Assembly (NCBI GenBank): GCA_038842485.1 | Contig: JAWBSP010000010.1 | Location: 1-43,510, forward strand | Source: Candidatus Hadarchaeales archaeon | GTDB lineage: Archaea; Hadarchaeota; Hadarchaeia; Hadarchaeales; JAWBSP01 | Length of the DNA: 43,510 nucleotides | Reading direction: 5' to 3' | Shown here: one piece after another, positions 11,060 through 29,781 of the stretch | Numbering within the stretch: position 1 is the first letter of the stretch | Layout: every line of letters begins with the position of its first letter | Position numbers and translations under genes: made by a program | The notes under the pieces: model-generated | Database searches by the model: none | What the model was told of the DNA's origin: nothing | What the model saw: the letters and a program-made list of their open reading frames with translations, nothing else

Positions 11060-11090
11060 CCCGCTTTTGGAACCCAATCCATTCTTATCG

Positions 11091-16034: not shown

Positions 16035-16508
16035 TCATGCCCTAGTGGGCGGAAGAACGCAGAAAACGAGCTGGCGGCGCGTATCGGCCAGCTTCTTGGC
16101 GATAAGTTCAGCCACTTTCTGCATCACCTTGAAACCGCGCTTGGGATCCTTCTCCAGCAGGGAAAGCAGCCGAGAGGCCTCAATGGTAATCAATTTTGTC
16201 CTTTCTAAACACGTGCCAACGGTTGTGTAGGTCTTTGATGGGAGGAGCGCGGGGTAGCCGAAGAAGTTCCCCGCCCCAAGCACATAAACCCCGATTCGCT
16301 CGGTTGGAGTGATCTCAATCTCGATTGAGACCCTCCCCTTTTCGATGAGGTATATCTTTTCGGCCCGGTCCCCGGGTTTGAAGAGGACGTGACCGGCCTC
16401 ATACTCCTCCTCTTGGGCTATGGCGGCAATATCCTGCAGCTCCTGAAAGCTAAGGTGCTCGAACAGGTCGGTAACCCTCAACCGCTCCGGCTGCACCGGC
16501 ATCCACAT
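16035..16508 (-). CDS. Stand-alone cyclic nucleotide-binding (Crp-type sensor) domain protein
   Basis: LFEHLS, LFKPGD..YLIEKGRV, GNFFG; no C-terminal HTH. Confidence 0.85.
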   Translation of the reverse strand: MWMPVQPERLRVTDLFEHLSFQELQDIAAIAQEEEYEAGHVLFKPGDRAEKIYLIEKGRVSIEIEITPTERIGVYVLGAGNFFGYPALLPSKTYTTVGTCLERTKLITIEASRLLSLLEKDPKRGFKVMQKVAELIAKKLADTRRQLVFCVLPPTRA

Positions 16509-16578: not shown

Positions 16579-17577
16579 ATGATGCGGGAATCTCTCTTCC
16601 TCCCAAGAAGGAACCTTCCGCGTGCACTGAAAAAACTAGCGGAAACTTCCACCCTTTATGCCCCCGTCAAAACTTGGGAGGGGGTGACGCTGGAACCCGT
16701 CAGGGGGGAAACGGAGAGGGTGACCTTCGAAAAGCGGCTACCCTCCGTAAAACCGCTCTTTCTGCCTCCCGTTGAGGGATTGATAAAGTACTCCATGAAC
16801 CCGCTCAGCCTTGAGAGCACTTTCTGGGAAAGCCCCTTTATCCTGCTGGGGGCAAGAGCTTGCGACCTCAATGCCTTGGTAATCTTGGACAAGGTCTTCT
16901 TGGAGGAGCCGGTTGATGAGCACTACCGGAGGAGGAGGGAGGCTGCAACGCTCATCAGCCTGGACTGCTTGGAACCCGAGGAGGCGTGCTTCTGCACGAG
17001 GTTGGGTTATCACCCCTACCCCACCAGTGGCTTCGACCTCAACATGAGCCAGCTGGAAGAGGGAATGCTCTTGGAGGCCGGGAGTGAAAAGGGTTCCAAG
17101 ATTTTGCAGCTGCTCACCGAGTTCACGGAAAATACCACGCCAGCTATGCTGGAGGAGAGGGAGAGAAACCGGAAGAGAATCGAGGGAAAAATGGAGGGGA
17201 GAAAACTTGAGAGGCTGGAGAAGGTGGGGGAGCTGAAAGAAGAATACTGGAAGCGATATGCCCTCAAGTGCGTGGAGTGCTCAGCCTGCATAAACATCTG
17301 CCCCACCTGCTACTGCTTCAGCTTGGCGGAGGAGAAACTTCAGGAACACTTTTTGAGGCTCAGGTATTGGGAGCCATGCCTGAAGGAAGGATACCAGAAG
17401 GTTGCGGCGGGTGTGAACCCCAGACCGGAACTCCACTCAAGACTTGCCAACCGAATCCTGCACAAGTTCGCGTACTTCCCCGAGAAATATGGTACCTATG
17501 CCTGCACGGGATGCGGCAGGTGCGTGGAAGCGTGCTTGGGAAAGATAGATGTGAGGGAGCCGCTGGAACATGAGTAG
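16579..17577 (+). CDS. HydB/AsrA-like Fe-S subunit
   Basis: GARACDL, CFC, CVECSACINICPTCYCF, CTGCGRCVEAC. Confidence 0.92.
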   Translation: MMRESLFLPRRNLPRALKKLAETSTLYAPVKTWEGVTLEPVRGETERVTFEKRLPSVKPLFLPPVEGLIKYSMNPLSLESTFWESPFILLGARACDLNALVILDKVFLEEPVDEHYRRRREAATLISLDCLEPEEACFCTRLGYHPYPTSGFDLNMSQLEEGMLLEAGSEKGSKILQLLTEFTENTTPAMLEERERNRKRIEGKMEGRKLERLEKVGELKEEYWKRYALKCVECSACINICPTCYCFSLAEEKLQEHFLRLRYWEPCLKEGYQKVAAGVNPRPELHSRLANRILHKFAYFPEKYGTYACTGCGRCVEACLGKIDVREPLEHE

Positions 17578-18400
17578 CCCCTACCTGCCCCAGCCGGCCA
17601 GAATTCTGGAGGTCATCGATGAGACCCCAAACATAAAAACTTTCGTGCTGGAACCCGAGAAAAAATTCGAGTTCAGTCCCGGCCAATTCCTCGAGCTGAC
17701 CGCCTTCGGGGTGGGAGAGGCACCCTTCGCCATCTCTTCCCCACCTCACGGCGAGAGGCTTGAGATGACCGTGATGAGGACCTTCGACCCCAGCCTAGGA
17801 ACCTACGGAAGGGTTACTTCGGCGCTCCATCGCATGGGGGCTGGCGAGGTGCTCGGAATCAGGGGACCTTACGGGAATTCCTACCCCGTGAAGGAATCTG
17901 AGGGAAAAGACATCCTGATTGTGGGAGGGGGAATCGGACTTTCAACTCTCCGCTCTTACCTCCTGACGCTTTTGCATGAGAGGGAAAAGTACGGAAGGAT
18001 CTTGCTTTTTTACGGGGCGAGAACGCCGGCTGACCTTGTCTTCAAAAGGGAGTACGAGGAGTGGAAGAGGAGAGGCGCGGAAGTGCATCTATCGGTGGAT
18101 GTGGGAACTCCGGGGTGGACTGGAAATGTGGGAGTGGTTACCACACTCTTCGACAGGGTGAAACTGGATTTCCGGAGAGAGCTAGCGGTTGTGTGCGGGC
18201 CTCCCATCATGATCAGGTTCACCGTCGAAAGGCTCCTTCAGGTGGGTTACGAACCGCCAAACATATACGTCTCACTGGAGCGGAAAATGAGGTGCGGAAT
18301 AGGAAAGTGCGGACACTGTAACATAGAGAAATACTACGTTTGCAAGGATGGCCCGATTTTCTCCTTCGAAAAACTAAAAGGGATTCCCGAGTGGTGGTGA
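17570..18400 (+). CDS. HydG/AsrB-like FAD/NAD(P)-binding [2Fe-2S] subunit
   Basis: PGQF, GEAPFAISS, RGPYGN, GGGIG, CGPPIM, ERKMRCGIGKCGHC..CKDGP. Confidence 0.93.
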   Translation: MSSPYLPQPARILEVIDETPNIKTFVLEPEKKFEFSPGQFLELTAFGVGEAPFAISSPPHGERLEMTVMRTFDPSLGTYGRVTSALHRMGAGEVLGIRGPYGNSYPVKESEGKDILIVGGGIGLSTLRSYLLTLLHEREKYGRILLFYGARTPADLVFKREYEEWKRRGAEVHLSVDVGTPGWTGNVGVVTTLFDRVKLDFRRELAVVCGPPIMIRFTVERLLQVGYEPPNIYVSLERKMRCGIGKCGHCNIEKYYVCKDGPIFSFEKLKGIPEWW

Positions 18401-19908
18401 TGGAGGTCAAAACCATTTGTCCCCACTGTGGTCTTTTATGCGACCTCACCCTCTTGAAGGAGAGAGAAATCCTAGGAACGGTCCCAAGCCCGCTGTGCGT
18501 GAAAGGGCTGCTAGCCTGGACCATCACCTACGACCAGAGCAGGATCTACCAGCCCATGATGAGAAAGGGGAGAAAACATGCCACCATCCACTGGAAGGAG
18601 GCTGTGGAGACGATGAGAAGAAAAATCAAAAACAAGGGGGCTCTCACCTTCGTGGTTTCGGGGAGTTGCACCGAGGAGGAGCTCGCCTGGATTTACTCCC
18701 TCTCTAATTCCCTAGGCGCCCCCATGGTGACTACCGATCCCGTTCTGTCCGCCTCGATTTTCTGTAAACAGGCCACCATTTCGGACCTCGAAACTGCCGA
18801 TGTAATTTTTATACTCGGGGAACTTCTCGAGTTCCACCCAGTTCTCGCAGGGCAAATCTTGAGGTCGAAGTATGAAAGAGGAACGAGGCTTTTCTGCCTT
18901 TCGAGCAGGCTTGGTCCATCAAGCTGGTTCTCCGAAACCCTGCAACCCCTACCAGGCGGAGAATCCCTCGTGCTCCTCCACATGGCGCAGATGCTGATTC
19001 AACAGGGGACATATAAAAAGGAGCAGGAGAAAATCCCAGGCTTCCCCGAATTCAGGAGCACTCTCAAAGCACTTCCCCCGGTTGATAGGGCGGGAATCAA
19101 ACCCCTCGCCCTTTCCCCCGTGGTTGATGCGCTGGCGAAGGCAAAGAAACCCCTTTTTGTGGTAACCCCTTCCGTCACCAAAACCGATAACTGGAAGGAA
19201 ACCCTCCTGAGCCTTTCCAACCTCGCCCTCCTGCTTGACTGCGGTGTTCTCATAGTTGGTGGACTCGAGAAGGGGCTACGGAAATATGGGGTGGAGGAGT
19301 ACGATGGGAAGAGGAAGAAAGTGGCCTTTATTTTCAGGTCTGATCCGCGCAGTGTTGATGCCGATTTCAAGATCCTGTTTACACCCTACTTCGTGGAGGA
19401 GGCTGACCTTCTCATTCCGATTCCATGCTTCACCGAACTCTCGGGGACCCTTACTGACGCGGATGGAGGGACCAAAAAGCTGAACAAAATCTCAGATCCC
19501 CCTCAAGATGTGAGGGAGGTGGGGTCGATATTGAGTGAGGTGGTGGAGGAACTGAGGCCTTCCTCTCCTCCCCCCAAGAAACCCCTCTTCGAGTTCAAAG
19601 AAGTGAAGGAGAAAATAAACGTCCCCAGGGTGAGTGCCGGCTTTCCATTTTTGCTATATTCCCAGCCCACTTACTTTAACTTCGACTGGGTGAAGTTAAA
19701 GAAACTGCTGGACCGTTTCCTAGACCTGAAGGATAGCTTTGAATTGAACCCTGAGGACGCTGAAAGGCTAGGAATAAAGGAAGGAGCAGAGGTCATGCTG
19801 AGAACTGAGAAGGAGGAATTCAAGAGGATGGCGCTGGTGAGGAGATCTGTTCCCCCCGGGGTGATATACCTCCCGGACTTTAAGACCTGCGTGGCTGCCG
19901 TGGTGTGA
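18400..19908 (+). CDS. Molybdopterin-oxidoreductase-fold (FdhF/NuoG-like) subunit lacking the catalytic Cys/Sec
   Basis: CPHCGLLC..LCVKG 4Fe-4S motif, TEEE, DLETADVIFILG, HPV, ELSGTLT, LNPEDAERLGI; no CARxC/UH segment. Confidence 0.8.
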   Translation: MEVKTICPHCGLLCDLTLLKEREILGTVPSPLCVKGLLAWTITYDQSRIYQPMMRKGRKHATIHWKEAVETMRRKIKNKGALTFVVSGSCTEEELAWIYSLSNSLGAPMVTTDPVLSASIFCKQATISDLETADVIFILGELLEFHPVLAGQILRSKYERGTRLFCLSSRLGPSSWFSETLQPLPGGESLVLLHMAQMLIQQGTYKKEQEKIPGFPEFRSTLKALPPVDRAGIKPLALSPVVDALAKAKKPLFVVTPSVTKTDNWKETLLSLSNLALLLDCGVLIVGGLEKGLRKYGVEEYDGKRKKVAFIFRSDPRSVDADFKILFTPYFVEEADLLIPIPCFTELSGTLTDADGGTKKLNKISDPPQDVREVGSILSEVVEELRPSSPPPKKPLFEFKEVKEKINVPRVSAGFPFLLYSQPTYFNFDWVKLKKLLDRFLDLKDSFELNPEDAERLGIKEGAEVMLRTEKEEFKRMALVRRSVPPGVIYLPDFKTCVAAVV

Positions 19909-20388
19909 ATGGAGCTCTATTTTGATATAGATCTGTGTGTGGGGTGCCACGCCTGCGAGCTCGCCTGCGCGCTCCAAAATCACGGGGAGAAGCGGATAAA
20001 CATTGAGGTTTTCGGAGGACTTTTCCCGCTCTCGGGGGTTTGCCGTCAATGCGAGAACAGCCCCTGCGTTCAGGTCTGCCCGAAGGAGGCCATAAAGAGA
20101 ACAGGGGATGCCGTAAAGATAAACGAGAACCTCTGCATAGGGTGCCGCTCCTGCTCCATCGCCTGTCCCTTTGGAAACATAGACTTCCTGGAATCAAGAA
20201 GGGTTTCGGTCAAGTGCGACGAATGCCTTGGTCGCTTGAAGGAGGGAGAGCGGCCCCCATGCGCCAGGGTCTGCCCAACCGGTGCTTTGAGATTCTGTGA
20301 GTATGAGGAGATGGAGAAGGTCGCGAGCACCGCAAAACGGAGAAGGGAGATGGTAGGGCCCAGAATCTTCGCCTGGAGACCAAAATGA
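19909..20388 (+). CDS. HycB/HyfA/CooF-like polyferredoxin (4x[4Fe-4S])
   Basis: CVGCHACELAC, CRQCENSPCVQVCP, CIGCRSCSIACP, KCDEC..PCARVCP. Confidence 0.9.
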   Translation: MELYFDIDLCVGCHACELACALQNHGEKRINIEVFGGLFPLSGVCRQCENSPCVQVCPKEAIKRTGDAVKINENLCIGCRSCSIACPFGNIDFLESRRVSVKCDECLGRLKEGERPPCARVCPTGALRFCEYEEMEKVASTAKRRREMVGPRIFAWRPK

Positions 20389-20825
20389 GGGCTGAAGAGC
20401 TGCTGGAGGAGATAAAGCAAAAATTCGGTGAGATTTTCCTCGAGGGGGGACTTAAACCTCACCTTGGGGCTAACCCCAGGATTTTCGTCAGGGTGTCAAA
20501 GGAGAGGATCCTCGATGCTGCAAAGAAGATGGTTGAGATGGGTTACAGGCTCTGCACCGTGAGCTGCGTAGAGCACATGTCCTTTTTCGAATTGATTTAC
20601 CATTTCTCTCTTGACCAAGAAAAAGTGCTGGCAAACCTGAGGATCGAGGTTCCAAAATCGAGTCCGAGAGTTGATTCTATAACCAGTGCGACGAAGGGAG
20701 CCCTATTCATAGAAAGGGAGATCCACGATCTGTTCGGAGTGGAGTTCGTGGGCCATCCGGATCTCCGAAGACTTATACTGGCGGACGACTGGCCCAAGGA
20801 GGTCTTTCCGCTCAGGAAGGGGTGA
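20385..20825 (+). CDS. NuoC-like hydrogenase subunit
   Basis: LIYHF, EREIHDLFGVEFVGHPDLRRL, FPLRK. Confidence 0.92.
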   Translation: MRAEELLEEIKQKFGEIFLEGGLKPHLGANPRIFVRVSKERILDAAKKMVEMGYRLCTVSCVEHMSFFELIYHFSLDQEKVLANLRIEVPKSSPRVDSITSATKGALFIEREIHDLFGVEFVGHPDLRRLILADDWPKEVFPLRKG

Positions 20826-20829
20826 GGAG

Positions 20830-21987
20830 ATGCCGGTTATCCCAATAGGTCCGTTCCACCCTGCCCTTAAGGAACCCGAGTTTTTCAAATTGTACGTGAA
20901 GGGGGAGCAGGTGGTGGGTGTCGACATAAGAATTGGCTGGGTACACAGAGGTATAGAAAAGCTTTCCGAGGGGTTGACCTTCGAGCAGATCCCCTTCCTC
21001 GTCGAGCGGATATGCGGTATATGCTCCAATGTTCACCCCCTCTGCTACGTCCAGGCGGTCGAGGATATTGCCCAGATAGAGGTTCCAGACAGAGCCAGAT
21101 ACATAAGAGTTATAATTGCGGAGCTCGAGCGGATTCACAGTCACCTCTTATGGCTGGGGGTTGCCGGGCACCTCATAGGTTTCGACACCCTACTCATGTG
21201 GGCTTGGAAATACAGAGAGCCTGTGCTGGACCTCTTCGAGCTCATGACCGGGAACAGGCAGAACTATGCCATGCAGGCGGTCGGAGGGGTCAGGTATGAT
21301 ATAAAACCAGAGCATGTACCGAAGATCCTAGAGGTCCTAAAGACGGTTGAGAAGGAGACAAAAAAAGCCGTTGGAATGGTGGAGGGCGACCCAGTTACCA
21401 AGAAGAGATTGGAGGGAATCGGATTATTAACCACGGAACAGGCACGGGACTTCTGCGTTGTGGGTCCAACCGCAAGGGGATCGGGATTGAAGATCGATGT
21501 GAGGAGGGATGACCCATATGCGGCCTATGGCGAACTGAGCTTTGATGTTCCTGTATACACTTCCGGGGACAACCTTGCCAGAGTTCTCGTGAGGATGGAC
21601 GAACTCCTCCAATCGGTCGAGCTTGTGAGACAGGCCCTAGATGGGCTTCCAAGAGGTGAGATAAGGGCAGAGTTTAAAGAGGTTCCGCCGGGAGAGGGGA
21701 TTGGGCGTGCTGAGGCCCCTAGAGGGGAGGACATACACTATGTTAAAACCGATGGAAGAAACACGCCCTTCAGGCACAAGATAAGAGCACCGACTTACGC
21801 CAACCTTCCCGCCCTCTCGGTCATGCTGCCAAACTACACCCTAGCCGATGCGGTGATAACCCTCGGCTCGATCGATCCTTGCTTCAGCTGCACCGAGAGG
21901 GTTGCGGTGGTTGATGTCCGGACGGGGAAGAAGAGGCACTTGAGCGAGGAGGAACTGGTGGAGATTTCCAGAAAACATGGGGCTTAA
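20830..21987 (+). CDS. Group 4 [NiFe]-hydrogenase large subunit
   Basis: GPFHP, HRGIEK, L1 ERICGICSNVH, EAPRGE, L2 DPCFSCTER plus cleavable C-terminal tail. Confidence 0.96.
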   Translation: MPVIPIGPFHPALKEPEFFKLYVKGEQVVGVDIRIGWVHRGIEKLSEGLTFEQIPFLVERICGICSNVHPLCYVQAVEDIAQIEVPDRARYIRVIIAELERIHSHLLWLGVAGHLIGFDTLLMWAWKYREPVLDLFELMTGNRQNYAMQAVGGVRYDIKPEHVPKILEVLKTVEKETKKAVGMVEGDPVTKKRLEGIGLLTTEQARDFCVVGPTARGSGLKIDVRRDDPYAAYGELSFDVPVYTSGDNLARVLVRMDELLQSVELVRQALDGLPRGEIRAEFKEVPPGEGIGRAEAPRGEDIHYVKTDGRNTPFRHKIRAPTYANLPALSVMLPNYTLADAVITLGSIDPCFSCTERVAVVDVRTGKKRHLSEEELVEISRKHGA

Positions 21988-22552
21988 AATAAAAGAGATC
22001 GGGGAGGCACTGAGATCGGCAGCAAGCAAGCCGTTCACCGTCCGCTATCCCTTCGTTCCCTCCCCACCGCCAGAAACGTTCAGGGGAAAGCCAGAATTCA
22101 ACGATAAATGCATGGGGTGCGGGGCCTGCGAGATGGTGTGCCCGGCGGGGGCCATCACGGTGGAGGATGGAGAGCTCAGAAGAATCCAAGTAGAGTACGG
22201 GAGATGTATAAGGTGCGGACAGTGTGCCAGACTTTGCCCGGTGGAGGGGATTAAACTGACAACCGGCTCCTGCGTGATTTCAAAAGGGGAGGAGGAAAGG
22301 ACCCGCACCTCGGTGGAGAGGAAACTCCTAAGGTGTGAAGAATGCGGGGCACCCATAACCGCTAGGGAGCACATGGGGTGGATGCTTGAAAGATTGGGTC
22401 CGCTTTCCTTTTCAAACCCCACTCTAGTTAAATTTTCCCAGCTGCTCTTGGGAGAGGCTGTGCCCGAAACGGAATCCCCCTTCCGCCTCCTCTGTCCCAG
22501 ATGCAGGAGGATGCTTGTACTTTCTGAGCACGGCTGGAGAACCAAGTATTAA
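21977..22552 (+). CDS. HycF/NuoI-like 2x[4Fe-4S] subunit
   Basis: TVRYPF, FRGKP, CMGCGACEMVCP, CIRCGQCARLCP, C-terminal CEEC/CPRC. Confidence 0.92.
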   Translation: MGLKIKEIGEALRSAASKPFTVRYPFVPSPPPETFRGKPEFNDKCMGCGACEMVCPAGAITVEDGELRRIQVEYGRCIRCGQCARLCPVEGIKLTTGSCVISKGEEERTRTSVERKLLRCEECGAPITAREHMGWMLERLGPLSFSNPTLVKFSQLLLGEAVPETESPFRLLCPRCRRMLVLSEHGWRTKY

Positions 22553-22573
22553 ACATTCCCACCTGGCAGGTAA

Positions 22574-22589
22574 TGTTACTATAGTAACA
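22574..22589. repeat. Perfect 16-bp palindrome between the convergent hydrogenase operons
   Basis: TGTTACTATAGTAACA; adjacent ACCTG-G-CAGGT at 22561-22571. Confidence 0.7.
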
Positions 22590-22637
22590 CGCGCTCAACG
22601 GAAAGTTTGCTGGAGATGGCCTTGAAATCGAAAAACT

Positions 22638-23565
22638 TTAGAACAAGACTAAGCAGACAACCAAGTTCGCAAGCACTGGTACCATGAGATAAAGCCAGCA
22701 GAACTTGAAGGCCTGATCGATTCTCGCCCTTGGATTGGCAGCAGCCAGCACCGACAGCACGGCGACCACCAGCACAACCTTGGCCAAGTGGAGGGCTGCA
22801 TCGATGGGCCAGACGCCCAAGGAGGGGGAGGGGAAGTAAAGGGAGACCAAAAGGCTCGAAAGCACGTACAGCTGGATGGCCTTTGAAAGTTTGAGCAGAC
22901 CCAGGAGCGAGCCGGAGTATTCGGTGTAAATCCCGGCCATGAGCTCCGTCTTGGCCTCCGGGATGTCGAAGGGGGGAAGACCCATTTTCGCCAGCATGCA
23001 GACGAAGAAAACGACTGCCGCAGGCAGGCAAGAAATAGATCGGACCCTTTGAGAGGGAAAACCTGACGATGTCCTCAATCCTGAGAGAGCCCGCGCCCAC
23101 CGCCGGAACCAGCAGACAGAGGGCGAAGCTGAGCTCGTACGATAAAACCAGTGCCATCTCCCTGCCGGCCCCCGTCGAGGAGAGGGGATTGCCTGATGCC
23201 ATTCCCCCCACAACTAGGGCCACGGCGAAGAAGGTCAACAGGTAGAGAAGGACCAGAAGATCCCCTCCGAACCCCAATACGGGCGCAGAAGCGGGACCGG
23301 GTATGAGCAAGCTGGCCACCAGAATGGAAGCAAGAGCCAGAACGGGAGCGGAAACGAAGGCCTTCCGGTGGGCCCCGAGGGGGATGACGGTCTCCTTGAA
23401 AATCAGCTTGAAGAAATCCGCAAAGGGCTGGAAGATTGGAGGTCCCACCCTCCACTGTACCCTCGCCACAACCTTCCTCATGACCCACACCAGAAAGAGC
23501 CCGAAACATGCAGCAAACAGGAGGCCTGGAAAGAATAGAGCCCTGAGGAGGAAGAGGGCCGTCAT
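22638..23565 (-). pseudogene. HycD/NuoH-like membrane subunit, frameshifted near 23020-23030 (mutation or assembly error)
   Basis: N-half RKVVARVQWRVGPP..QPFADFFKLIFKE and C-half PFDIPEAKTELMAGIYTEYSG..NPRARIDQ lie in different frames; junction TT-GCCT-GCCT-GCG. Confidence 0.85.
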
Positions 23566-25499
23566 ACCGTCACGTATGGGGAGAGAAATACGAAGAGGAG
23601 GAGCAGCGCCCCCAGCATGAGCACAAGGAGGAGCACTGGAACGTATCCTCCCTTGAGCAGACGTCTGTGCATCCCCCTAGCACCCGATGCCACCCCCCGA
23701 GCCACCCCAACCCAGAACAGGTCAAACCCGCCCCTTCTTGCCACGCGCAGCAGGGGATCGAAGAAATGCTCGGCGCTCCCGCTGAACACATCCGAATGTG
23801 GCCTCAGCTCCTCCCCAAGTATGTCAGCCGACTCCCCCCCTATCACCATCTCGTACTTCTGAGGAGAGCTCACCGCTGGCGCGAAACTGAGCCCTGCCCT
23901 GTATATCGCCAGCCCAAGCAGGATGGAGGCACCGACCGCCGCAGCCAGAACAGCCGAAAGGTAGACTCCTGTCGAAGTCGTGTATCCCAGCCATCCTATC
24001 TCGAGCGGGGAGACCCCAACCGATTCGACCGCAGGGGAAATCACCTTCATGGGGAGCAGGGGAAAGATCCCAAACAGAAGACAAAGCCCCGAAAGAACCG
24101 AGGTTGGGATGACCATGTGGATGGGAACCTCCTCTATTCTCCCGAACCGCTTCGATTTTTGACCAAAGAAAATTGAATGGGCTGCCTTCATGAAGGATGC
24201 CACGGTTAATGCAGAAACGTAAATGGCGATGGCTGCATAAAGCGTGTAGATTGATGAAAAGTTGGAAGTGGAGAGACAAGCCTCATAGATAATGAGTTTG
24301 CTGGCAAAACCGTTGAAGGGTGGGATACCCGAAATCGCGAAAGCAGCGAACAAGAAAGCTAAGGTAGTTAGAGGCATGTCCTTTGCAAGACCCCCCATTT
24401 CATCTATGTTCCTAGTTCCAACCCTATAGATCACCGAGCCAGCACATAGGAAAAGACATGCCTTAAAGAGAGCATGATTTAGGGCGTGGAAAAGTGCACC
24501 GGTAATCCCAAGTGTGGTTCCTACCCCAATTCCAAGAATCATATAACCTATCTGGCTTACAGAGTGAAAAGCCAAAATCCGCTTTATGTCTTTCTCGAGG
24601 AAAGCCATATGAACACCGATCACCATTGTGACAACACCAAAGGTCGCCACCAGAAGTCCTGCCCACTCCAAGAGAGAGGGACCAAGACCGTATACACCTA
24701 GGAGGAACCTGAGCATCCCGTAGATCCCCGCCTTTATCATAATCCCGGAGAGAAGGGCACTTATGGGTGAAGGGGCCTCAGGGTGGGCCTCGGGAAGCCA
24801 AGTGTGGAAAGGCGACATGGCAGCCTTGAACCCGAAGCCGACTAGGCTCAATGCACCAACAGGTAACAACCACCTTCCGGGGGAAATGGCGGCAAGTCCC
24901 CCCCTCCTAGAGAGTTCCACCATGCTCAGCGTCCCAATTCCGGGATGGAAGTAAATGCTCAGAAAGGCGGCCAGAAGACAGAGGGTTCCGACGTGAATCA
25001 TAATGAAGTATTTCATGGCTGCCCTGAGAGAAACCTCCGTTCTGAAGTGACCAACCAGTAGGTAGCAGCTCAGGGTCATCAGCTCCCAGAAGATCAGGAA
25101 CTGGAAGAGGTTGGCAGAACAGAACATCCCGAGCATGCCTCCCCCGAAAAGAAGGAGGATCGAGTAGAACCGGGACTGCCCCTCCCTCCCGGCCATGTAA
25201 CCTGCCGAATGGAGGGTGGAGAGGAAACACAGGAAAATGGTGACGGTTGAGAAGAGAAGCGCTAGGGAATCGAGATAAAGCTCGTAGTTCAGCTTCTGGG
25301 CTGGAGCCCATGGGTAGGAGAGATGTATGGGACCCGTCGAAACCACTTGGGCAAGAAGGATGGCAAGAGGGAGAAGAACCAGAAGAAAAACGCCGGCCGT
25401 GAAATGAGGCCTGAACCTTCCGAGGGCTGGCGCGATGGCAGCCCCTACAAAGGGCAGAAGAAAGAGGTAGGGGATCAGAGAAGTGGGGATCGCTATCAT
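23562..25499 (-). CDS. Proton-translocating antiporter-like subunit (MrpA/HyfB/NuoL family)
   Basis: FWELMT, PFHTWLPEAHPEAPSPISALLSG, KRILAFHS, NHALFKACLF, GIPPFNGFASK. Confidence 0.92.
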   Translation of the reverse strand: MIAIPTSLIPYLFLLPFVGAAIAPALGRFRPHFTAGVFLLVLLPLAILLAQVVSTGPIHLSYPWAPAQKLNYELYLDSLALLFSTVTIFLCFLSTLHSAGYMAGREGQSRFYSILLLFGGGMLGMFCSANLFQFLIFWELMTLSCYLLVGHFRTEVSLRAAMKYFIMIHVGTLCLLAAFLSIYFHPGIGTLSMVELSRRGGLAAISPGRWLLPVGALSLVGFGFKAAMSPFHTWLPEAHPEAPSPISALLSGIMIKAGIYGMLRFLLGVYGLGPSLLEWAGLLVATFGVVTMVIGVHMAFLEKDIKRILAFHSVSQIGYMILGIGVGTTLGITGALFHALNHALFKACLFLCAGSVIYRVGTRNIDEMGGLAKDMPLTTLAFLFAAFAISGIPPFNGFASKLIIYEACLSTSNFSSIYTLYAAIAIYVSALTVASFMKAAHSIFFGQKSKRFGRIEEVPIHMVIPTSVLSGLCLLFGIFPLLPMKVISPAVESVGVSPLEIGWLGYTTSTGVYLSAVLAAAVGASILLGLAIYRAGLSFAPAVSSPQKYEMVIGGESADILGEELRPHSDVFSGSAEHFFDPLLRVARRGGFDLFWVGVARGVASGARGMHRRLLKGGYVPVLLLVLMLGALLLLFVFLSPYVTV

Positions 25500-25816
25500 C
25501 TTCTTCCCCTGTACTCATCGATTACGTTTTGACGGCACGGGCGGACCCCGCTCTTGTATCCCGCCCTCGCTATGGCATGGGAGGCGACGGGGGCGGTGAG
25601 GTATACGAAAAGGACGACCACGAGGGTTTTGGCCGAGAGGGGATCGATGCCCCTCCTAAAGACAATCGCCAGCCCAAACCAGAGGACCCCTATGGTGCAT
25701 AAGGTTGAGGCCTGAATCCTAGTGTAGAGATCCGGAAACCTGGCTATCCCAAGCGAGCCAACCAGACAGAAGATCGCGCCGGCCAGAGCCAAGATTATGT
25801 AAAGGAGCTCAATCAA
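25496..25816 (-). CDS. MrpG/MnhG subunit
   Basis: GIARFPDLYTRIQA, TAPVASHAIARA; TTG start overlapping the end of mrpF. Confidence 0.88.
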   Translation of the reverse strand: MIELLYIILALAGAIFCLVGSLGIARFPDLYTRIQASTLCTIGVLWFGLAIVFRRGIDPLSAKTLVVVLFVYLTAPVASHAIARAGYKSGVRPCRQNVIDEYRGRR

Positions 25817-26063
25817 TCCTACCACGCTCCAAATATTTGCAGACTGCAAGCGTGCTCACGAAGGCTATAAGGGCCAGGGGAATGGCGGTGTCCGAAAGGA
25901 AGGGGCTGTATCTATCCCCAAGAAGGAGCACCACCCCAACCCCCATGGTCCAGATGACATTGGAGGCAAGCAGGATGTCCGCCACTGTGGGGCCCCTGAT
26001 CAGCCTCCAGATGCAAAGGGCAAAGGCAACCACCATGAGCAACATCACGAGCTGGAAGATCAT
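25809..26063 (-). CDS. MrpF/MnhF subunit
   Basis: RLIRGPTVAD, three TM helices. Confidence 0.88.
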   Translation of the reverse strand: MIFQLVMLLMVVAFALCIWRLIRGPTVADILLASNVIWTMGVGVVLLLGDRYSPFLSDTAIPLALIAFVSTLAVCKYLERGRID

Positions 26064-26548
26064 TTGATCCTCCCCAAGTATCTCTCAAAGGGCCCAGAAA
26101 CTTTCTCGGCGATGGCCTTCCGCTCCTTCTCTGTCACGTTGATCCAGTGGACATACAGCATCCCTTTCTTCTCGTTCAAATCCACCACAAAGGTCCCGGG
26201 CGTCATGGTTATAGTGTTCGACAGAAGCGTCACCGCCCATTCCTTCCGCAGGCCCGTCGGCACCCTCACGAATCCGGGCCTCACCCTACCAGTTGCGATG
26301 AGCTTGAACATCGCTGCGCTTGCCTTCAGCATTTCCCAGAGATAGACGAAAATGTATCCAACCATTCTAATCCAAACCCCTGGCTTAAGCTCATCCCTCT
26401 CCCTTCCGGTTAAGGAGAAGGAGGCGAAAAGGAGCGCGCTCAATCCGCCGATCAGAGCCAGCGCGAGCAGGAACTGGAGATCCAGACTGAAGGAGAGGAG
26501 GAGGCAGGAGAGGAAAACGGCGGCCCACACGGAAATTTTCCTTCTCAT
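26060..26548 (-). CDS. MrpE/MnhE subunit
   Basis: PGFVRVP, LSNTITMTPGT, LYVHWI. Confidence 0.9.
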   Translation of the reverse strand: MRRKISVWAAVFLSCLLLSFSLDLQFLLALALIGGLSALLFASFSLTGRERDELKPGVWIRMVGYIFVYLWEMLKASAAMFKLIATGRVRPGFVRVPTGLRKEWAVTLLSNTITMTPGTFVVDLNEKKGMLYVHWINVTEKERKAIAEKVSGPFERYLGRIK

Positions 26549-28023
26549 CTCATCACCTCGGTAATGTATTCGCTCGGGTTCAAGAGCTGGTGGGATATCC
26601 TAGAGGTCAAATCGAGCAGGGGCTGCGGGTAGAGACCGATCAGAAGGATGAGGGCGGAGAGAAGGAGAACCGGACCCAGCATTGTCCCGGGCATCCTCAT
26701 ATTCCCGCTTGGTCCCCTACCCTTCCCTAAGAAAACGAGTTGGAAGACCCTCAGATAGATGGCTAGGAAAAAGATGCTCGTGCCGATGGAGACAACAAGG
26801 GGAACCCACTGACCGTTCTGATAGAGCGCCTCATAGATAAGCAGTTTGCTGAAGAAACCGTTGCAGGGGGGAACTCCCGTCACCGCTAGCCCACCAAGGA
26901 GAAAGGTGGCGGCCTCAGCAGGAGCAACGTTGAGCAGACCACCCATCCTTCTCATGTCCCTAGTGCCCACCCTGTGGATCAGGCAACCTGCGATGAAGAA
27001 TAGCATGGCCTTTGCCAAAGCGTGGTTGAGGAGATGGAAAATCGATCCCTGAAGTCCTAGCTCCCCTGCCCCGAGCCCAACCACCAGGTAGCCCATGGAA
27101 CCAACGGTGGAGTAGGCTAGGAAGCGCTTCAGGTCGGTCTGGATGAGGGCGAGCATCGCCCCCACCACCATGGTTAGCATTCCCAGAGCGAGAAGGGTTG
27201 GCTTGAGAAGTGAGATGTAGTCGAGACCGAAGACCGTGCAGCCCACCCTCAGGATGGCGTAGAACGCCACCTTCACCACCACACCCGAGAGGAGGGCGCT
27301 TATGGGGGAGGGGGCTGCCGGGTGGGCGTCGGGTAGCCAAGTGTGAAGGGGCACTATGGATGACCCAACACCAAGGCCCACCGCGAGGGAGATGAAGCCG
27401 AAAATGGGGAGGGTCCTAGGAGCAATCGGTGCCATGGCCTTCAGACCCTGAGCAATGTATGCAAGATTCAGGTTTCCCGTGAACTCGTATAGAATTCCTA
27501 TGCCCAGCAGGAAGAAGGACATGCCCACCATGCTCAGGATGGCGTATTTGAAGGAGGCCCGGAGCTCGGTTGATCCCCTCAGAAAGCCAACTAAGGCGTA
27601 GGACGAGATGAAGAGGATCTCAAAGAAGACGAACATGTTGAAGAGATCCCCGGTCAGGACAACCCCCTGCATGCCAGCTAGCAGGAACATGAGGAGGGAA
27701 TCATACTGGACCCTGCCTGTGAACTCTCTGGTGTAGGAGATAGAATATGCGATCGCGAGGAGGCCGAGAAGGGAAACTAGAAGGGAAACGGTTGAACTTA
27801 GGTTGTCAACTGCCAAGACGATTCCCGTTGGGGCACGCCAGCCCCCCAGCCTGTAAACAACGATCTCTCCAGAGAGAGTCTGGCAGAGCAGAAGGGCGGA
27901 GGAAACCAGCATGAAGACCCCGGCCACCAAGGAGATGGATTGCCTGATCCTTGCCTGCCTGAAAATAACGTTCAGCCCCCCACAGAGCAGCGGCACCACC
28001 ACGAGGTAGATGGGAGGAATCAT
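26545..28023 (-). CDS. MrpD/MbhH-like antiporter subunit
   Basis: GGW.AP.GI, TGDLFNMFVFFE, PLHTWLPDAHPAAP, KRFLAYS. Confidence 0.92.
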   Translation of the reverse strand: MIPPIYLVVVPLLCGGLNVIFRQARIRQSISLVAGVFMLVSSALLLCQTLSGEIVVYRLGGWRAPTGIVLAVDNLSSTVSLLVSLLGLLAIAYSISYTREFTGRVQYDSLLMFLLAGMQGVVLTGDLFNMFVFFEILFISSYALVGFLRGSTELRASFKYAILSMVGMSFFLLGIGILYEFTGNLNLAYIAQGLKAMAPIAPRTLPIFGFISLAVGLGVGSSIVPLHTWLPDAHPAAPSPISALLSGVVVKVAFYAILRVGCTVFGLDYISLLKPTLLALGMLTMVVGAMLALIQTDLKRFLAYSTVGSMGYLVVGLGAGELGLQGSIFHLLNHALAKAMLFFIAGCLIHRVGTRDMRRMGGLLNVAPAEAATFLLGGLAVTGVPPCNGFFSKLLIYEALYQNGQWVPLVVSIGTSIFFLAIYLRVFQLVFLGKGRGPSGNMRMPGTMLGPVLLLSALILLIGLYPQPLLDLTSRISHQLLNPSEYITEVMR

Positions 28024-28361
28024 TCCGAGGTCCCCACGATTCTTGAGTCGGTGGTCTTGTGCTCCTCGAATATTTTTATGGCAACCGCGGTGATCAACAT
28101 CAGCACCCCGAACTCGATGACAATCGCGGTGAGGAGAAGGGCCTGCAGAAGGGGATCAACCGCGTTTGGAACCGATGAACCGGAAGTTATGGGAACGGCT
28201 CCTCCCTCAAAATAGCCAAGAGCAACTAGGAAGAGGTTGGTTGCATAACCCAGGATACAGATGCCGAAAATCATCTTGAACAGGTCCCGCTTCACTAGAA
28301 TGCTGTAAATCCCCACCGCCGCAAGCCCGATTATCAAAACGTAGGGGAGATTCCCGAGCAT
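28020..28361 (-). CDS. MrpC/MnhC subunit
   Basis: VDPLLQALLLTAIVI motif. Confidence 0.92.
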   Translation of the reverse strand: MLGNLPYVLIIGLAAVGIYSILVKRDLFKMIFGICILGYATNLFLVALGYFEGGAVPITSGSSVPNAVDPLLQALLLTAIVIEFGVLMLITAVAIKIFEEHKTTDSRIVGTSE

Positions 28362-28808
28362 TCACTCCTCCTCCAGGGCCGGGTACCTTTCGAGATAGTA
28401 ATAAATCAGGAGGGGGATCTCACCGCCCACCAGGAGTCCCGAAGCCACGAGCAGGGGGACGAGGAATCCTGCCATGGTGAGGTGACCAGAGAGCTTGGGG
28501 AAGAGGTTCGTCAGGAACTCCCTTCCGAAGGCGAGACCTATGCAGCCTATGAAGAGATACCCCAACAGCCCGCCCGCCCTAGTAAAGTAAAATTTATTTG
28601 GCGAGAGCAGCTTCTCCGACCTCTTAATACCGTGTCCGATGATGATCAGGGAGACCCCCATCCCAATGGCCACACCTCCGGCGAAGGAGCCGCCTGGAGA
28701 GACATGGCCCGTGAGGATGAGGAGGATGGCGTAACCGAAGATCAAGCAAGCTAAAATCCTGGAGGCGGTTCGAACGATCACGCTCATCTCGCTTTTCCTT
28801 CCCCTCAT
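28362..28808 (-). CDS. MrpB/MnhB (MbhF-like) subunit
   Basis: GHVSPGGSFAGG motif; ATG at 28808. Confidence 0.88.
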   Translation of the reverse strand: MRGRKSEMSVIVRTASRILACLIFGYAILLILTGHVSPGGSFAGGVAIGMGVSLIIIGHGIKRSEKLLSPNKFYFTRAGGLLGYLFIGCIGLAFGREFLTNLFPKLSGHLTMAGFLVPLLVASGLLVGGEIPLLIYYYLERYPALEEE

Positions 28809-29350
28809 CGCTCCCCCCTCCCCAATTTCTTCCTGAGGATGGCGGAGATCCCCAACACCGAGACGAAGAGGACCGTGACCTCTCCCAGCGTGTCGAACCC
28901 CCTGTAGTCGAAGACCACGGAACACACGAAGTTTCTGGAGCCGGTTTCGGAGAGGCTCTGATCAACGTACCGCCCAGCCACCGACTCACCGATGACCGAC
29001 CTTGCGAGCGTGTACTGGGTGCTTCCGAAGGGGGTGATGAACTTGGTGAAGGTGGAGTAGGCGAGGAAGGTCGAGGCCAGAATCACGACCAATACGATGG
29101 CCGACCCAAACCTCTCCGGTTCTGATGACCTCCGGTGGGTCCTAGAGATCGCCACAACGAAAACGATGGTGGTGGCCGTCTCCACCAGAAACTGAACCAT
29201 CGCAAGGTCTGGAGCCATCATGAGCAGGAAGAGAACCCCAACGAAGAAACCGCTGACCCCAAGAACGATAGCCGCCGAGAGGAGATCCCTCAGCTCCACG
29301 GCAACGATGGCCGAAACAAGAGTGAGAAGCAGAAAGATTAGGATGATCAC
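28805..29350 (-). CDS. DUF4040/MbhD+MbhE-like subunit (MrpA C-terminal part)
   Basis: APDLAM, NFVCSVVFDYRGFDTLGE. Confidence 0.88.
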   Translation of the reverse strand: MIILIFLLLTLVSAIVAVELRDLLSAAIVLGVSGFFVGVLFLLMMAPDLAMVQFLVETATTIVFVVAISRTHRRSSEPERFGSAIVLVVILASTFLAYSTFTKFITPFGSTQYTLARSVIGESVAGRYVDQSLSETGSRNFVCSVVFDYRGFDTLGEVTVLFVSVLGISAILRKKLGRGER

Positions 29351-29781
29351 TTACTTCCCCCCAGAACGGCGAGGGCTTTCACCACCCCGTCGATTATCTC
29401 CTGCGGTCTGGGCGGACAACCGGTGACATAAACATCAACCGGGATTACCTTGTCGACGGGGCCGGCAAAATTGTAGCTGTTCTTGAAAATTCCGCCGGAA
29501 GTGGCGCACGTCCCCACTGCTATCACTGCCTTCGGGAGGGGCGTCTGCTCATAAATCCTTCTGAGCCTAGGGGCCGACTGCCGGTTGACCATCCCTGTCA
29601 CGGTCAGGATGTCCGCGTGACGGGGGCTTCCTTCCAACAGGATACCGAACCTCTCGACGTCGAATTTGGGAGTTAGAGCGTTTATGATTTCGATGTCACA
29701 GTTGTTGCATGAGCCCCCGGCGTTCACATGAAAGATCCAGGGGGACTTTTTTCTGCTCCAGCTTCTCAGTTTGCCGAGCAT
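29347..29781 (-). CDS. Group 4 hydrogenase small subunit (NuoB-like)
   Basis: SCNNCDIE, DVERFG, SPRHAD, GTCA, PVDVYVTGCPPRP. Confidence 0.94.
   Translation of the reverse strand: MLGKLRSWSRKKSPWIFHVNAGGSCNNCDIEIINALTPKFDVERFGILLEGSPRHADILTVTGMVNRQSAPRLRRIYEQTPLPKAVIAVGTCATSGGIFKNSYNFAGPVDKVIPVDVYVTGCPPRPQEIIDGVVKALAVLGGSK

Follow-up and report, generated by a model that had tools for sequence, protein, structure and literature searches.

Gene content and layout of the locus

The window, the whole 43,510-nucleotide stretch of DNA that was analyzed, comes from a hot-spring archaeon, Candidatus Hadarchaeales. All 17 genes listed between positions 16579 and 29781 were confirmed at the coordinates in Table 1; FdhX starts at ATG 18400, not at TTG 18340 as the sequence-only reading had placed it. 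The genes lie in two convergent operons, with HydB to HycF on the plus strand and the SSU, the Mrp/antiporter subunits, and HycD on the minus strand. The earlier description of the first seven genes as one tightly coupled operon was borne out by overlapping or abutting ORFs: HydB and HydG overlap by 8 nt, HydG and FdhX have a common TGATG, FdhX and HycB abut, HycB and NuoC overlap by 4 nt, and LSU and HycF overlap by 11 nt.

Table 1. Genes of the hydrogenase locus and its surroundings, with positions in the window
Feature	Positions	Strand	Evidence
Maturation: HypF	11067-13361	+	Pfam
MFS transporter among maturation genes	13333-14448	+	Pfam
Maturation: HypA	14477-14848	+	Pfam
Mrp/NBP35-type ATPase among maturation genes	14740-15546	+	Pfam
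HycI-type protease	15543-16028	+	Pfam
cNMP-binding-domain protein, candidate regulator, divergent	16035-16508	-	PF00027
HydB / SHI-beta-like iron-sulfur subunit, 332 aa	16579-17577	+	PF17179 (Fer4_22); best NCBIfam ShyB/HydB/AsrA
HydG / SHI-gamma-like FAD/NAD(P)-binding [2Fe-2S] subunit, 276 aa	17570-18400	+	PF00175 (NAD_binding_1) + PF10418 (DHODB_Fe-S_bind)
FdhX, truncated formate-dehydrogenase-like protein, 502 aa	18400-19908	+	PF00384 (Molybdopterin) + PF01568 (Molydop_binding)
HycB-like ferredoxin subunit, 16 Cys	19909-20388	+	PF13247
NuoC/MbhK-like subunit	20385-20825	+	PF00329
[NiFe] large subunit (LSU)	20830-21987	+	PF00346 + PF00374; RICGICSNVH (N-terminal), DPCFSC (C-terminal)
HycF/MbhN/NuoI-like 2x[4Fe-4S] subunit	21977-22552	+	two CxxCxxCxxxCP motifs; Pfam, NCBIfam
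HycD/NuoH-like membrane anchor, frameshifted in assembly	22638-23565	-	PF00146 in two frames
HyfB/NuoL-like antiporter-type subunit, 645 aa	23562-25499	-	PF00361 + PF00662; best NCBIfam hydrogenase 4 subunit B
MrpG homologue	25496-25849	-	PF03334
MrpF homologue	25809-26063	-	PF04066
MrpE homologue	26060-26548	-	PF01899
MrpD/MbhH-like antiporter subunit, 492 aa	26545-28023	-	PF00361
MrpC/NuoK-like	28020-28361	-	PF00420
MrpB-like	28362-28925	-	PF04039; listed GTG start overlaps next gene
MbhD/MbhE-like	28805-29350	-	PF13244 + PF20501
NuoB-type hydrogenase small subunit (SSU), 144 aa	29347-29781	-	PF01058; translation

The Ni-Fe ligand motifs of the LSU are intact at both ends, in agreement with the RxCGxC/DPCxSC pattern read earlier, and the protein bears a C-terminal extension. 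Its best matches among solved structures were HycE (7z0s_E, 1.2e-90) and MbhL (6cfw_L, 1.2e-87), which we take to belong to groups 4a and 4d, respectively. The canonical Mbh large subunits of the order are only 48-54% identical to this LSU and form a separate clade in a quick tree search with a midpoint root, as was also used for HydG. The SSU has four Cys (in GGSCNNC, GTCATSGG, and GCPP), corresponding to the proximal cluster only. The membrane arm comprises PF00146, two PF00361 proteins, and Mrp B, C, E, F, and G together with MbhD/E. With the LSU ligands, a NuoB-type SSU, and a HycD anchor accompanied by antiporter-like subunits, the locus has the features of a group 4 membrane-bound [NiFe]-hydrogenase. 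The 16 Cys of HycB, enough for four [4Fe-4S] clusters, are all invariant in five orthologues, and HycF has four further C-terminal Cys besides its two cluster motifs; the HycB-type four-cluster and HycF-type two-cluster subunits of formate hydrogenlyase are thus both present. Respiratory complex I was rejected as an assignment because no NuoE/NuoF domain was found in the cluster and the Ni-Fe ligands are intact.

The hycD gene is split by a 4-nt tandem duplication near 23020 (repeat tGCCTGCCTGc), with PF00146 positions 9-166 in the frame of 22579-23565 and positions 172-297 in the frame of 22638-23213, both on the minus strand. This split, and the lack of the cluster in G001, a relative of the same genus, might suggest a decaying locus in which the frameshift marks a pseudogene cluster. 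Such a reading is hardly credible, however, because the 4 nt are absent in all three runs covering the site (X5, X6, and X8, from three other studies and at least 99% identical; a fourth run does not reach it) and every other gene is intact with its motifs kept. A slip in assembly or at strain level is the likelier cause. In G002, another genus relative, the hycD orthologue is intact (306 aa).

Conservation of the gene order and the HydB/HydG module

The synteny search proposed with the sequence-only reading showed that the order HydB-HydG-FdhX-HycB-NuoC-LSU-HycF is conserved. Besides the window's own locus, it was found in G002 (locus L012) and in five metagenome loci (L014-L018), that is, in 6/6 relatives found. 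The gene junctions were bridged at an identity of at least 99% by contigs from four runs belonging to four other studies. Because the same order recurs in these relatives and independent contigs bridge the junctions, the arrangement is neither chance nor a chimera. HydG is 78-80% identical across the loci, and the gene for the cNMP-binding-domain protein still adjoins the cluster in L012, L015, L016, and L018 (71-76% identity). Downstream of the cluster in L016 and L018, only the SSU was found, with no HycD or Mrp genes in the ~7 kb fetched beyond; therefore, the membrane arm is not always adjacent, and it could be absent in this lineage.

HydB residues 7-323 matched PDB chain 9nez_B (4e-42) with the Cys motifs aligned, and HydG matched 9nez_C (8.9e-55) with GGGIG and CGIGKCGHC...C retained. 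Judged by these alignments, the two proteins are homologous along their whole length to the beta and gamma subunits of Pyrococcus furiosus sulfhydrogenase I (SHI), in keeping with their earlier assignment to the NAD(P)H-module type. They are homologues rather than equivalogs, since the NCBIfam equivalog scores lie far below the cut-offs (HydB against ShyB, 1.2e-50, below cut-off).

The earlier observation that the window holds no group 3b subunits or AsrC for HydB/HydG could be extended to the whole genome (G000; 0.94 Mb, 88.9% complete). PF00374 had a single match there, the group 4 LSU, and neither a group 3b large subunit nor a second [NiFe] large subunit was found; G002 (92% complete) likewise has one large subunit. 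The AsrC-type domain (PF01077, NIR_SIR) gave no match in G000, and the control search matched in 11/14 genomes. In tblastn searches of the genome outside the window, no paralogue of HydB, FdhX, HycB, NuoC, LSU, SSU, HycD, or the Mrp subunits was detected. Since the genome searches gave a single [NiFe] large subunit and no match to the AsrC-type domain, HydB and HydG have no other visible partner; a missed one is possible because of the 88.9% completeness. Two assignments were accordingly rejected, namely, a group 3b sulfhydrogenase (SHI/SHII), for which beta and gamma are present and alpha and delta were absent in the G000 search, and the anaerobic sulfite reductase AsrABC, for which G000 has no AsrC sirohaem subunit. 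Elsewhere in the order, HydB adjoins a group 3b large subunit in 3/3 genomes checked (G011, G036, and G003).

HydBG was also found beside group 4 hydrogenase genes in Aerophobetes. In G066, the only genome in which the whole operon was read through, the genes run on one strand as HydB-HydG-HycB-HycD-SSU-NuoC-LSU-antiporters-Mrp-HycF. Among the 31 Aerophobetes genomes searched, 19 of 20 loci read HydG-HycB-HycD with no Fdh-like gene, and HydB stands in front in 18; two loci are truncated, one at HydB and the other after HydG. We found no paper on this HydB-HydG-HycB-Mbh/Mrp operon. In the HydG tree (a quick search, midpoint root), 4 archaeal and 19 Aerophobetes group-4-linked HydG sequences lie on one side of a branch with an SH-aLRT of 99; across that branch are the paralogues linked to 3b or Fdh genes, among them the ones from the archaeon's own order. 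Group-4-linked HydG is a dedicated lineage of its own, common to the archaeal and bacterial operons.

The HydBG module has many partners, among them a selenocysteine-type FdhA-FdhB-NrfD set and group 3b genes that follow it in Aerophobetes, so HydB, HydG, and FdhX could be imagined as a separate soluble oxidoreductase that is simply co-transcribed with the hydrogenase genes. This is highly improbable given the conserved order, the overlapping stop/start codons through HycB, NuoC, and LSU, and the dedicated HydG lineage across two domains; moreover, FdhX has no active site that such an enzyme could use.

The formate-dehydrogenase-like subunit FdhX

FdhX is ~200 aa shorter than solved formate dehydrogenases (674-715 aa). 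Its AF2 model (pLDDT 93.3) matched FdhH at a TMq of 0.81-0.83 and Nqo3 at 0.72 in Foldseek. In a 60-sequence alignment, FdhX was seen to lack the Cys/Sec-His active-site loop (D-HCARLC(U)H-P), as do its two closest relatives. The subunit had been called catalytically dead from the sequence, and the loss of this loop supports that view, the N-terminal CxxCxxxC...C [4Fe-4S] motif with its four cluster Cys being retained nonetheless. Because it has no Sec/Cys-His loop, FdhX is unable to oxidize formate by the known mechanism. PF00384 has one match in the genome, in which MoaC and three AOR-family genes are present and MobA was not found; at 88.9% completeness, MobA could have been missed. Formate hydrogenlyase proper, with catalytic Sec/Cys-His at a bis-MGD Mo/W site, was rejected on the deleted loop and the MobA result.

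FdhX is the fastest-evolving subunit, with 40-41% identity across loci compared with 56-80% for the other cytoplasmic subunits, and only 8 of 1.84 billion representatives matched it at E<=1e-30. Its FeS domain (residues 1-50) is best conserved, and residues 101-125 are least conserved, the least conserved region surrounding the former active site. Even so, all relatives found carry an intact copy of the gene.

Takano et al. 2026 (PMC13582414) reported, in silico only, bacterial group 4b clusters with a Cys/Sec-less Fdh and SHI-beta/gamma homologues. Their AlphaFold models showed similar wiring with a proposed NADP(H) link, and they favored a three-way bifurcating/confurcating role in which some third substrate would act at the Fdh-like subunit (PMC13582414). 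Transferred to the present locus, the Fe-S network would have three arms, ending at the Ni-Fe site, HydG/NAD(P)H, and FdhX, the last of which would bind a third substrate or redox partner, e.g., ferredoxin, at its [4Fe-4S] end. The retained cluster Cys, the conservation of residues 1-50, the persistence of an intact gene despite fast divergence, and the four clusters of HycB, which suffice for a branch point, are consistent with this proposal. We consider it unlikely, however, because the entire catalytic loop is gone, MobA was not found in the 88.9% complete genome, the surroundings of the former active site are least conserved, and Aerophobetes operons have no Fdh-like gene. In addition, we know of no SHI-type HydG acting as a bifurcating flavoprotein.

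The Aerophobetes operons also weaken the earlier idea that a dead Fdh serves as the scaffold that wires in HydBG, by analogy with NuoG, since HydBG adjoins HycB-HycD...LSU there without an Fdh-like gene. Because this HydBG lineage sits directly on HycB, HycB is a likelier docking partner of HydBG than FdhX, and FdhX is probably a side branch, not a bridge.

Proposed function and comparison with known systems

We propose, with a probability of roughly 0.6, that the locus encodes an NAD(P)H-coupled, ion-translocating Mrp-type group 4 [NiFe]-hydrogenase derived from formate hydrogenlyase, with its electron-input arm rebuilt and FdhX left as a relic. We infer physical assembly, NAD(P)H as a substrate, ion coupling, and direction. 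HydG (FAD, [2Fe-2S]) would exchange hydride with NAD(P)(H), electrons would pass via HydB to the four-cluster HycB and from there via HycF and the SSU to the Ni-Fe site, and HycD would couple turnover to the Mrp module as well as to both antiporter-like subunits. FdhX would be a relic of the ancestral formate dehydrogenase, with a Mo/W-pterin site now neither bound nor used; attached to HycB, it may persist in a structural role, its [4Fe-4S] cluster forming a side branch. Going by the standard potentials of H2 (about -414 mV) and NAD(P)H (about -320 mV), reduction of NAD(P)+ by H2 could power ion export, and H2 formation from NAD(P)H would require low H2 or an ion gradient. Reduced ferredoxin may come in as a second entry at HycB or HycF.

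The complex might instead be mainly a ferredoxin-oxidizing Mbh-type enzyme with HydBG as an exit, electrons leaving as H2 or NAD(P)H, so that one complex would do the work of Mbh and SHI. This fits the finding of only one hydrogenase and only one complex-I-like/Mrp complex in the 0.94-Mb genome, the rest of the order having a canonical Mbh encoded by one operon, often accompanied by a separate group 3b enzyme; the three AOR-family genes, which imply ferredoxin reduction; and the homology of HycF to MbhN, the ferredoxin-facing subunit of Mbh. However, a ferredoxin site cannot be demonstrated from sequence, HycF is reportedly capped by HycB in the E. coli formate hydrogenlyase structure (7Z0S), and the reading overlaps the NAD(P)H-coupled one more than it excludes it; we regard it as quite unlikely. 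Since no other hydrogenase or complex-I-like machine was found, the complex is likely central to the organism's energy metabolism.

More tentatively, and at somewhat below even odds, HydBG-linked Mrp/Mbh hydrogenases may constitute a cross-domain class of ion-translocating H2:NAD(P)+ oxidoreductases with their own co-evolving HydBG lineage, the equivalent of complex I for hydrogen cycling. In the archaeal form, an intermediate stage would be preserved, in which the Mo subunit of a formate hydrogenlyase degenerated to an Fe-S-bearing relic as the enzyme acquired a dinucleotide module; this would be a second, independent replay of the presumed NuoG route. So far, the putative class has been seen in this archaeal genus and, of the Aerophobetes genomes searched, in about two thirds. 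An NAD(P)(H)-coupled version would connect H2 and an ion gradient directly with the main hydride pool of the cell, and H2 production and consumption would be budgeted differently when microbes of hot springs and sediments are modeled from their genomes. It would also bear on the origin of complex I, in which a hydrogenase-like core is combined with a cofactor-less molybdopterin-fold subunit as well as a dinucleotide module; here, different parts make up that combination.

Of the three outcomes named beforehand as refuting the sequence-only reading, a group 3b or Asr partner encoded elsewhere was not seen in the 88.9% complete genome and a loss of the gene order in relatives did not occur, but a match to an already described arrangement did, as the bacterial version has been in print since 2026 (Takano et al., PMC13582414); the design is known, and the statement that no enzyme of such composition has been characterized still stands. 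The Takano clusters likewise have a group 4 LSU and SSU, ferredoxin subunits, a Cys/Sec-less Fdh-like subunit, and co-encoded SHI-beta/gamma homologues. They are bacterial, with HyfE-like, HyfC-like, and proton antiporter subunits and no Mrp B-G set in their description, whereas the present locus is archaeal and Mrp-linked, lies in two convergent operons, and has an Fdh-like subunit truncated to 502 aa. The Aerophobetes operon shares the HydG lineage, HycB, HycD, SSU, NuoC, LSU (54% identical), two antiporter-like subunits, Mrp B-G, and HycF, but is bacterial, has no Fdh-like gene, and carries all genes on one strand with HycF last.

Compared with E. coli formate hydrogenlyase-1 (7Z0S/7Z0T), whose HycE is the best solved LSU match and whose FdhF (7z0t_A; TMq 0.81) is among the best structural matches of FdhX, the locus follows the FdhF-HycB-HycF-HycG/HycE wiring as its template and likewise has a HycI-type protease gene and the LSU extension; it differs in the FdhX without a Sec/Cys-His loop, the Mrp-type membrane arm, and the added HydBG. 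An Mrp-type Na+/H+ module is likewise joined to a group 4 hydrogenase in Thermococcus Fdh-Mfh-Mnh (group 4b) and P. furiosus Mbh (6CFW), but the donor/acceptor proposed here is NAD(P)(H); the donors known for Mrp-linked group 4 hydrogenases are, according to a review (PMC8165549), ferredoxin, CO, and formate. P. furiosus SHI (group 3b, 9NEZ) has homologous full-length beta and gamma subunits with the same cofactor motifs, whereas here 3b alpha/delta were absent from the genome search and the hydrogenase module is group 4 and membrane-bound. Like the N-module of complex I (NuoEFG), the locus combines a cofactor-less molybdopterin-fold subunit (Nqo3 and the FdhX model, TMq 0.72) and a flavoprotein dinucleotide module on a NuoB/C/D/I-type core. 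The dinucleotide module, however, is HydBG (FAD, PyrK-like) rather than NuoEF (FMN), the Mo-fold relic is probably a side branch rather than a bridge, and the acceptor would be H+ rather than quinone.

Gene content and conservation of the locus

The stretch at 16579-29781 consists of two convergent operons, whose genes and surroundings are listed in the table. Throughout the + strand operon, stop codons overlap or adjoin the start of the next gene. HydB and HydG (together HydBG) are homologues of the beta and gamma subunits of the P. furiosus sulfhydrogenase I (SHI), and FdhX is a truncated formate-dehydrogenase-like protein. Downstream of the operons lies an ATP-dependent DNA ligase gene, which is consistent with an archaeal host.

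Features of the hydrogenase locus and its surroundings in contig JAWBSP010000010.1
Feature	Position (strand)	Place	Remarks
CBS-pair protein and Na+/H+ exchanger (PF00999)	9347-10928	directly 5' of tRNA-Thr(GGT) and hypF	
HypF		upstream of the hydrogenase operons	
MFS transporter	13333-14448	upstream, between hypF and hypA	
HypA		upstream	
Mrp/NBP35-type ATPase		upstream	
HycI-type protease		upstream	
Divergent cNMP-binding protein	16035-16508 (-)	upstream	157 aa
HydB/SHI-beta-like Fe-S protein	(+)	+ strand operon, gene 1 of 7	Pfam/NCBIfam
HydG/SHI-gamma-like FAD/NAD(P) and [2Fe-2S] protein	(+)	+ strand operon, gene 2	
FdhX, molybdopterin-fold protein	18400-19908 (+)	+ strand operon, gene 3	502 aa; start ATG 18400 overlaps the HydG stop codon
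HycB-like ferredoxin	(+)	+ strand operon, gene 4	16 Cys
NuoC-like protein	(+)	+ strand operon, gene 5	
[NiFe] large subunit (LSU)	(+)	+ strand operon, gene 6	RICGICSNVH, DPCFSC
HycF-like two-cluster protein	21977-22552 (+)	+ strand operon, gene 7	
NuoB-type small subunit (SSU)	(-)	- strand operon	four Cys
MbhD/E-, MrpB-, MrpC-, MrpD-, MrpE-, MrpF- and MrpG-like proteins	(-)	- strand operon	
HyfB/NuoL-like antiporter subunit	(-)	- strand operon	645 aa
HycD	(-)	- strand operon	frameshifted near 23020 in this assembly

The order HydB-HydG-FdhX-HycB-NuoC-LSU-HycF was also found in the genus relative G002 (locus L012) and in the metagenome loci L014 to L018 (L013 being the window's own sequence), so that the gene order is conserved; a lack of such conservation, which would have refuted the sequence-only reading, was not seen. 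Contigs from four runs, belonging to four other studies and all labelled hot springs metagenome, matched the stretch with at least 99% identity and bridged the gene junctions. None of the 15 runs listed for the sequence was an RNA run. The two-operon gene set is thus confirmed, and its parts, motifs and conservation are shown by the sequences themselves.

In hycD, 4 surplus letters near 23020 (23000-23030, - strand) form a tandem GCCT repeat, so that the PF00146 match is spread over two frames. Decay of the locus was considered and rejected, because the 4 letters were absent in three runs of other studies (the fourth had no coverage there) and the HycD orthologue of G002 is unbroken at 306 aa; the duplication was read as an assembly or strain-level slip. 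Elsewhere, the gene of the 645-aa antiporter-like subunit differed in two runs by 3 nt, in frame, at position 24776. A joint in the run contigs that skipped 983 nt (20728-21712) was dismissed, since one of its sides spans a mere 23 letters and its depth is very high, and was read as conserved sequence of other organisms.

The FdhX-type cluster was found solely in genus g1, in two of its three genomes. G001, the remaining genome (92% complete), gave no match to HydB, FdhX, LSU or PF00374 and would therefore have no hydrogenase at all. At L016 (13545-17600) and L018, the HydB...HycF operon was followed only by the convergent SSU gene and then by unrelated genes (an AAA/DUF4143 ATPase, two small ORFs and HypF), and no HycD or Mrp genes were found within the stretch fetched downstream of SSU.

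Several smaller features were also recorded. The 157-aa protein, which has a cyclic-nucleotide-binding domain only, adjoins the cluster in four related loci too (71-76% identity) and is a candidate regulator. The MFS transporter gene of the window does not stand between hypF and hypA in L012, L015, L016 and L018. Beyond its two ferredoxin motifs, HycF has four extra Cys in residues 119-176 (CEEC...CPRC), which could form another metal site.

Alternative partners of HydBG and the state of FdhX

The sequence-only reading had assigned HydBG to this hydrogenase, with no group 3b or AsrC partner in the window. A scan of the window's own genome, G000 (0.94 Mb, 27 contigs, 88.9% complete), likewise found no such partner: the LSU of the locus was the only PF00374 match, FdhX was the only PF00384 match, and the NIR_SIR (AsrC-type) domain had no match. 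In tblastn searches of G000 with all cluster proteins, only two paralogues, both of HydG, were found outside the window. Judged by neighbours and sequence appearance, both were rejected as hidden partners, one sitting in a pyrimidine operon and looking PyrK-like and the other, NfnS/SudB-like, lying where a contig ends. Large subunits numbered one in G002 and zero in G001. Across the phylum (66 genomes, 65 from one order), 37 genomes had a HydB homologue; G002 aside, these were at most 46% identical, the full-length ones 29-38%, and in G011, G036 and G003, the three that were checked, some 2 kb separated HydB from a large subunit of group 3b type. These results directly show that HydBG has no alternative partner in the assembled G000.

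FdhX is a rare protein. A search of 1.84 billion representative proteins gave 703 matches at E <= 0.001, of which just 8, including two fragments, reached E <= 1e-30, and a word-indexed search of 5.8 billion clusters gave one close relative (43% identical). The closer FdhX-like protein P0004 is about 45% identical; P0136, P0137 and P0139 are more distant. Short molybdopterin-fold proteins form several clusters in other phyla in a protein atlas, where they serve as leads only.

The best solved matches of FdhX were formate dehydrogenases with lengths of 674-715 aa, F420-dependent ones among them. In the pairwise alignment with 9t1s_L, the catalytic Sec/Cys-His position stood opposite unrelated FdhX residues. 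In a 60-sequence alignment, FdhX and the two relatives nearest to it showed a gap in place of the entire loop D-HCARLC(U)H-P-T..G of the canonical enzymes, and the loop was degenerate in more distant relatives of 559-575 aa. The N-terminal [4Fe-4S] motif, by its four Cys, was nearly invariant. The gap accords with the earlier view that the Fdh-like subunit is catalytically dead. The AlphaFold2 model of FdhX was confident (pLDDT 93.3, pTM 0.91) and matched FdhH with TMq 0.81-0.83 and TMt of about 0.6, the NuoG homologue Nqo3 with TMq 0.72, and also the FdhF chain of formate hydrogenlyase (FHL), 7z0t_A. Across loci, identity was 40-41% for FdhX, compared with 56-67% for HydB, 62-70% for LSU, 71-74% for HycB and 78-80% for HydG, and the invariant positions of FdhX were densest in residues 1-50 and sparsest around 101-125, at the former active-site loop. 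MoaC and three AOR-family genes were found in G000; AOR enzymes carry a pterin without guanine dinucleotide. A MobA model had no match in G000 (88.9% complete), and the control search was positive in all 14 genomes. The loop gap, the low conservation, the lack of a MobA match and the kept Cys together support a reading of FdhX as a putative cofactor-less relic that would retain its Fe-S cluster.

Counterparts in Aerophobetes and relationships of the subunits

A scan of genome contigs with FdhX returned one weak locus, L001 of Candidatus Aerophobetes, which led to the Aerophobetes genome G066. One contig of this genome (C2) carries a canonical group 3b operon and, on the opposite strand, a HydBG-hydrogenase operon (L097 16869-19999 and L098 1-9843) with HydB-HydG-HycB-HycD-SSU-NuoC-LSU, two antiporter-like genes, MbhD/E, MrpB-G and HycF. 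Its LSU is 54% identical to that of the window, and no Fdh-like gene was found in the HydB...HycF operon, the only Aerophobetes operon read from end to end. An orthologue of the group-4-linked HydG with at least 66% identity was present in 20 of 31 Aerophobetes genomes. Among the 20 orthologous loci (L099-L118), HydG-HycB-HycD occurred in 19, with HydB ahead in 18 of these; one locus was cut at HydB and one after HydG.

In a quick, midpoint-rooted HydG tree, the group-4-linked sequences, 4 of them archaeal and 19 from Aerophobetes, grouped together (SH-aLRT 99), and the 3b-linked and Fdh-linked paralogues, those of the archaeon's order included, fell outside. A HydG lineage dedicated to these hydrogenases was thus observed directly. 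In further Aerophobetes loci (L130 28-8055 in G072 C7, L119 and L129 in G073 C24), HydB-HydG was followed by FdhA in two pieces (289 plus 741 aa), the break being a probable selenocysteine codon, and then by a four-cluster FdhB-like protein, NrfD, FdhE and MobA. The gene content of the HydBG-FdhA-FdhB-NrfD set suggests a molybdoenzyme that is anchored in the membrane and linked to NAD(P)H. Since HydBG also stands 5' of selenocysteine-type FdhA-FdhB-NrfD-FdhE-MobA, the module is promiscuous, and the group-4-linked HydG lineage is distinct in spite of this.

The usual membrane hydrogenase of the order is a canonical single-operon Mbh (six loci read). The window LSU is 48-54% identical to Mbh large subunits across the order and 50-54% in the six loci. 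In a quick LSU tree, the HydBG/FdhX-linked large subunits formed one group (11 rows, SH-aLRT 93) nested in a clade (99) with LSUs of Omnitrophota, Bathyarchaeia, Nezhaarchaeales, Methanomethylicota and others, separate from the Mbh of the archaeon's order. The large subunits of these four named groups share roughly 57-65% identity with that of the window. The closest LSU relative, P0016 (83% identical), combines NuoC and LSU in one chain of 552 aa; it probably shares a contig with P0004 (longest contig 22,495 for both), as the LSU P0021 probably does with the HydB P0287 (longest contig 108,367 for both).

Another complex-I-like set was seen in two genomes of the order (L056 2817-11507 in G025 C7, and L057 in G023 C35). 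The Ni-Fe Cys are missing from its NuoD-like subunit (RICILEP, and ...SCPSDMDR at the end), and the set is adjoined by two more proteins, one HydB-like with 414 aa and the other Fdh-like and full-length with 713 aa. The in-frame TGA of the G025 and G023 'large subunits' was considered as a selenocysteine codon and rejected as a normal stop, in a protein without the Ni-Fe Cys.

Proposed electron path and comparison with described enzymes

From the gene set we infer how the complex would assemble, its substrate, its direction and its ion coupling. Electrons would pass from NAD(P)(H) at HydG to HydB, through the four HycB clusters to HycF, SSU and the Ni-Fe site, and HycD would provide the energetic coupling to the Mrp module and to both antiporter-like subunits. 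The neighbouring Na+/H+ exchanger may bear on the ion moved. Input of ferredoxin at HycB or HycF is also plausible, given that no other hydrogenase was found in G000 and that the genome has ferredoxin-reducing AOR genes.

In the position that FdhF takes on HycB in FHL, FdhX would form a relic side branch. The sequence-only reading had instead made the dead Fdh the bridge to HydBG, which is probably not the case: as the Aerophobetes operons lack an Fdh-like gene, HycB rather than FdhX is the likely docking site of HydB. A complex prediction of FdhX and HycB with HydB as partner, run without controls, gave a score of 0.01 and a mark of 0.32, which speak neither for nor against such docking. HydB docked on HycB agrees with the branched model in an article by Takano et al. 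(Front Microbiol, September 2026; PMC13582414).

That article, the only description of the design found, covers it in a bacterial data set: in group 4b FHL-like clusters, the catalytic Cys/Sec is missing from about half of the Fdh sequences, Cys/Sec-less Fdh occurs together with homologues of SHI-beta and SHI-gamma, and in AlphaFold models the Fe-S network branches to the large subunit, SHI-gamma and the Fdh-like protein. As a possible role, its authors put forward electron bifurcation or confurcation that involves H+/H2, NADP+/NADPH and a further, unidentified substrate (PMC13582414). The arrangement is therefore already in print. Apart from this and the bridging role of the relic, the comparative evidence largely supports the earlier interpretation. 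A 2021 review of complex-I-like enzymes, in the part used here, names ferredoxin, CO and formate and no other donor for Mrp-linked group 4 hydrogenases (PMC8165549). Searches of open full-text literature turned up no account of the Mrp-type form in archaea or of the Fdh-less one in Aerophobetes. By their published description (PMC13582414), the clusters of Takano et al. are bacterial and have HyfE-like and HyfC-like subunits and proton antiporters in the membrane, whereas the present locus is archaeal and Mrp-type. As judged from its genes, the locus thus appears to be an archaeal, Mrp-linked form with a truncated Fdh of a recently noted kind of enzyme that is known from sequences and models.
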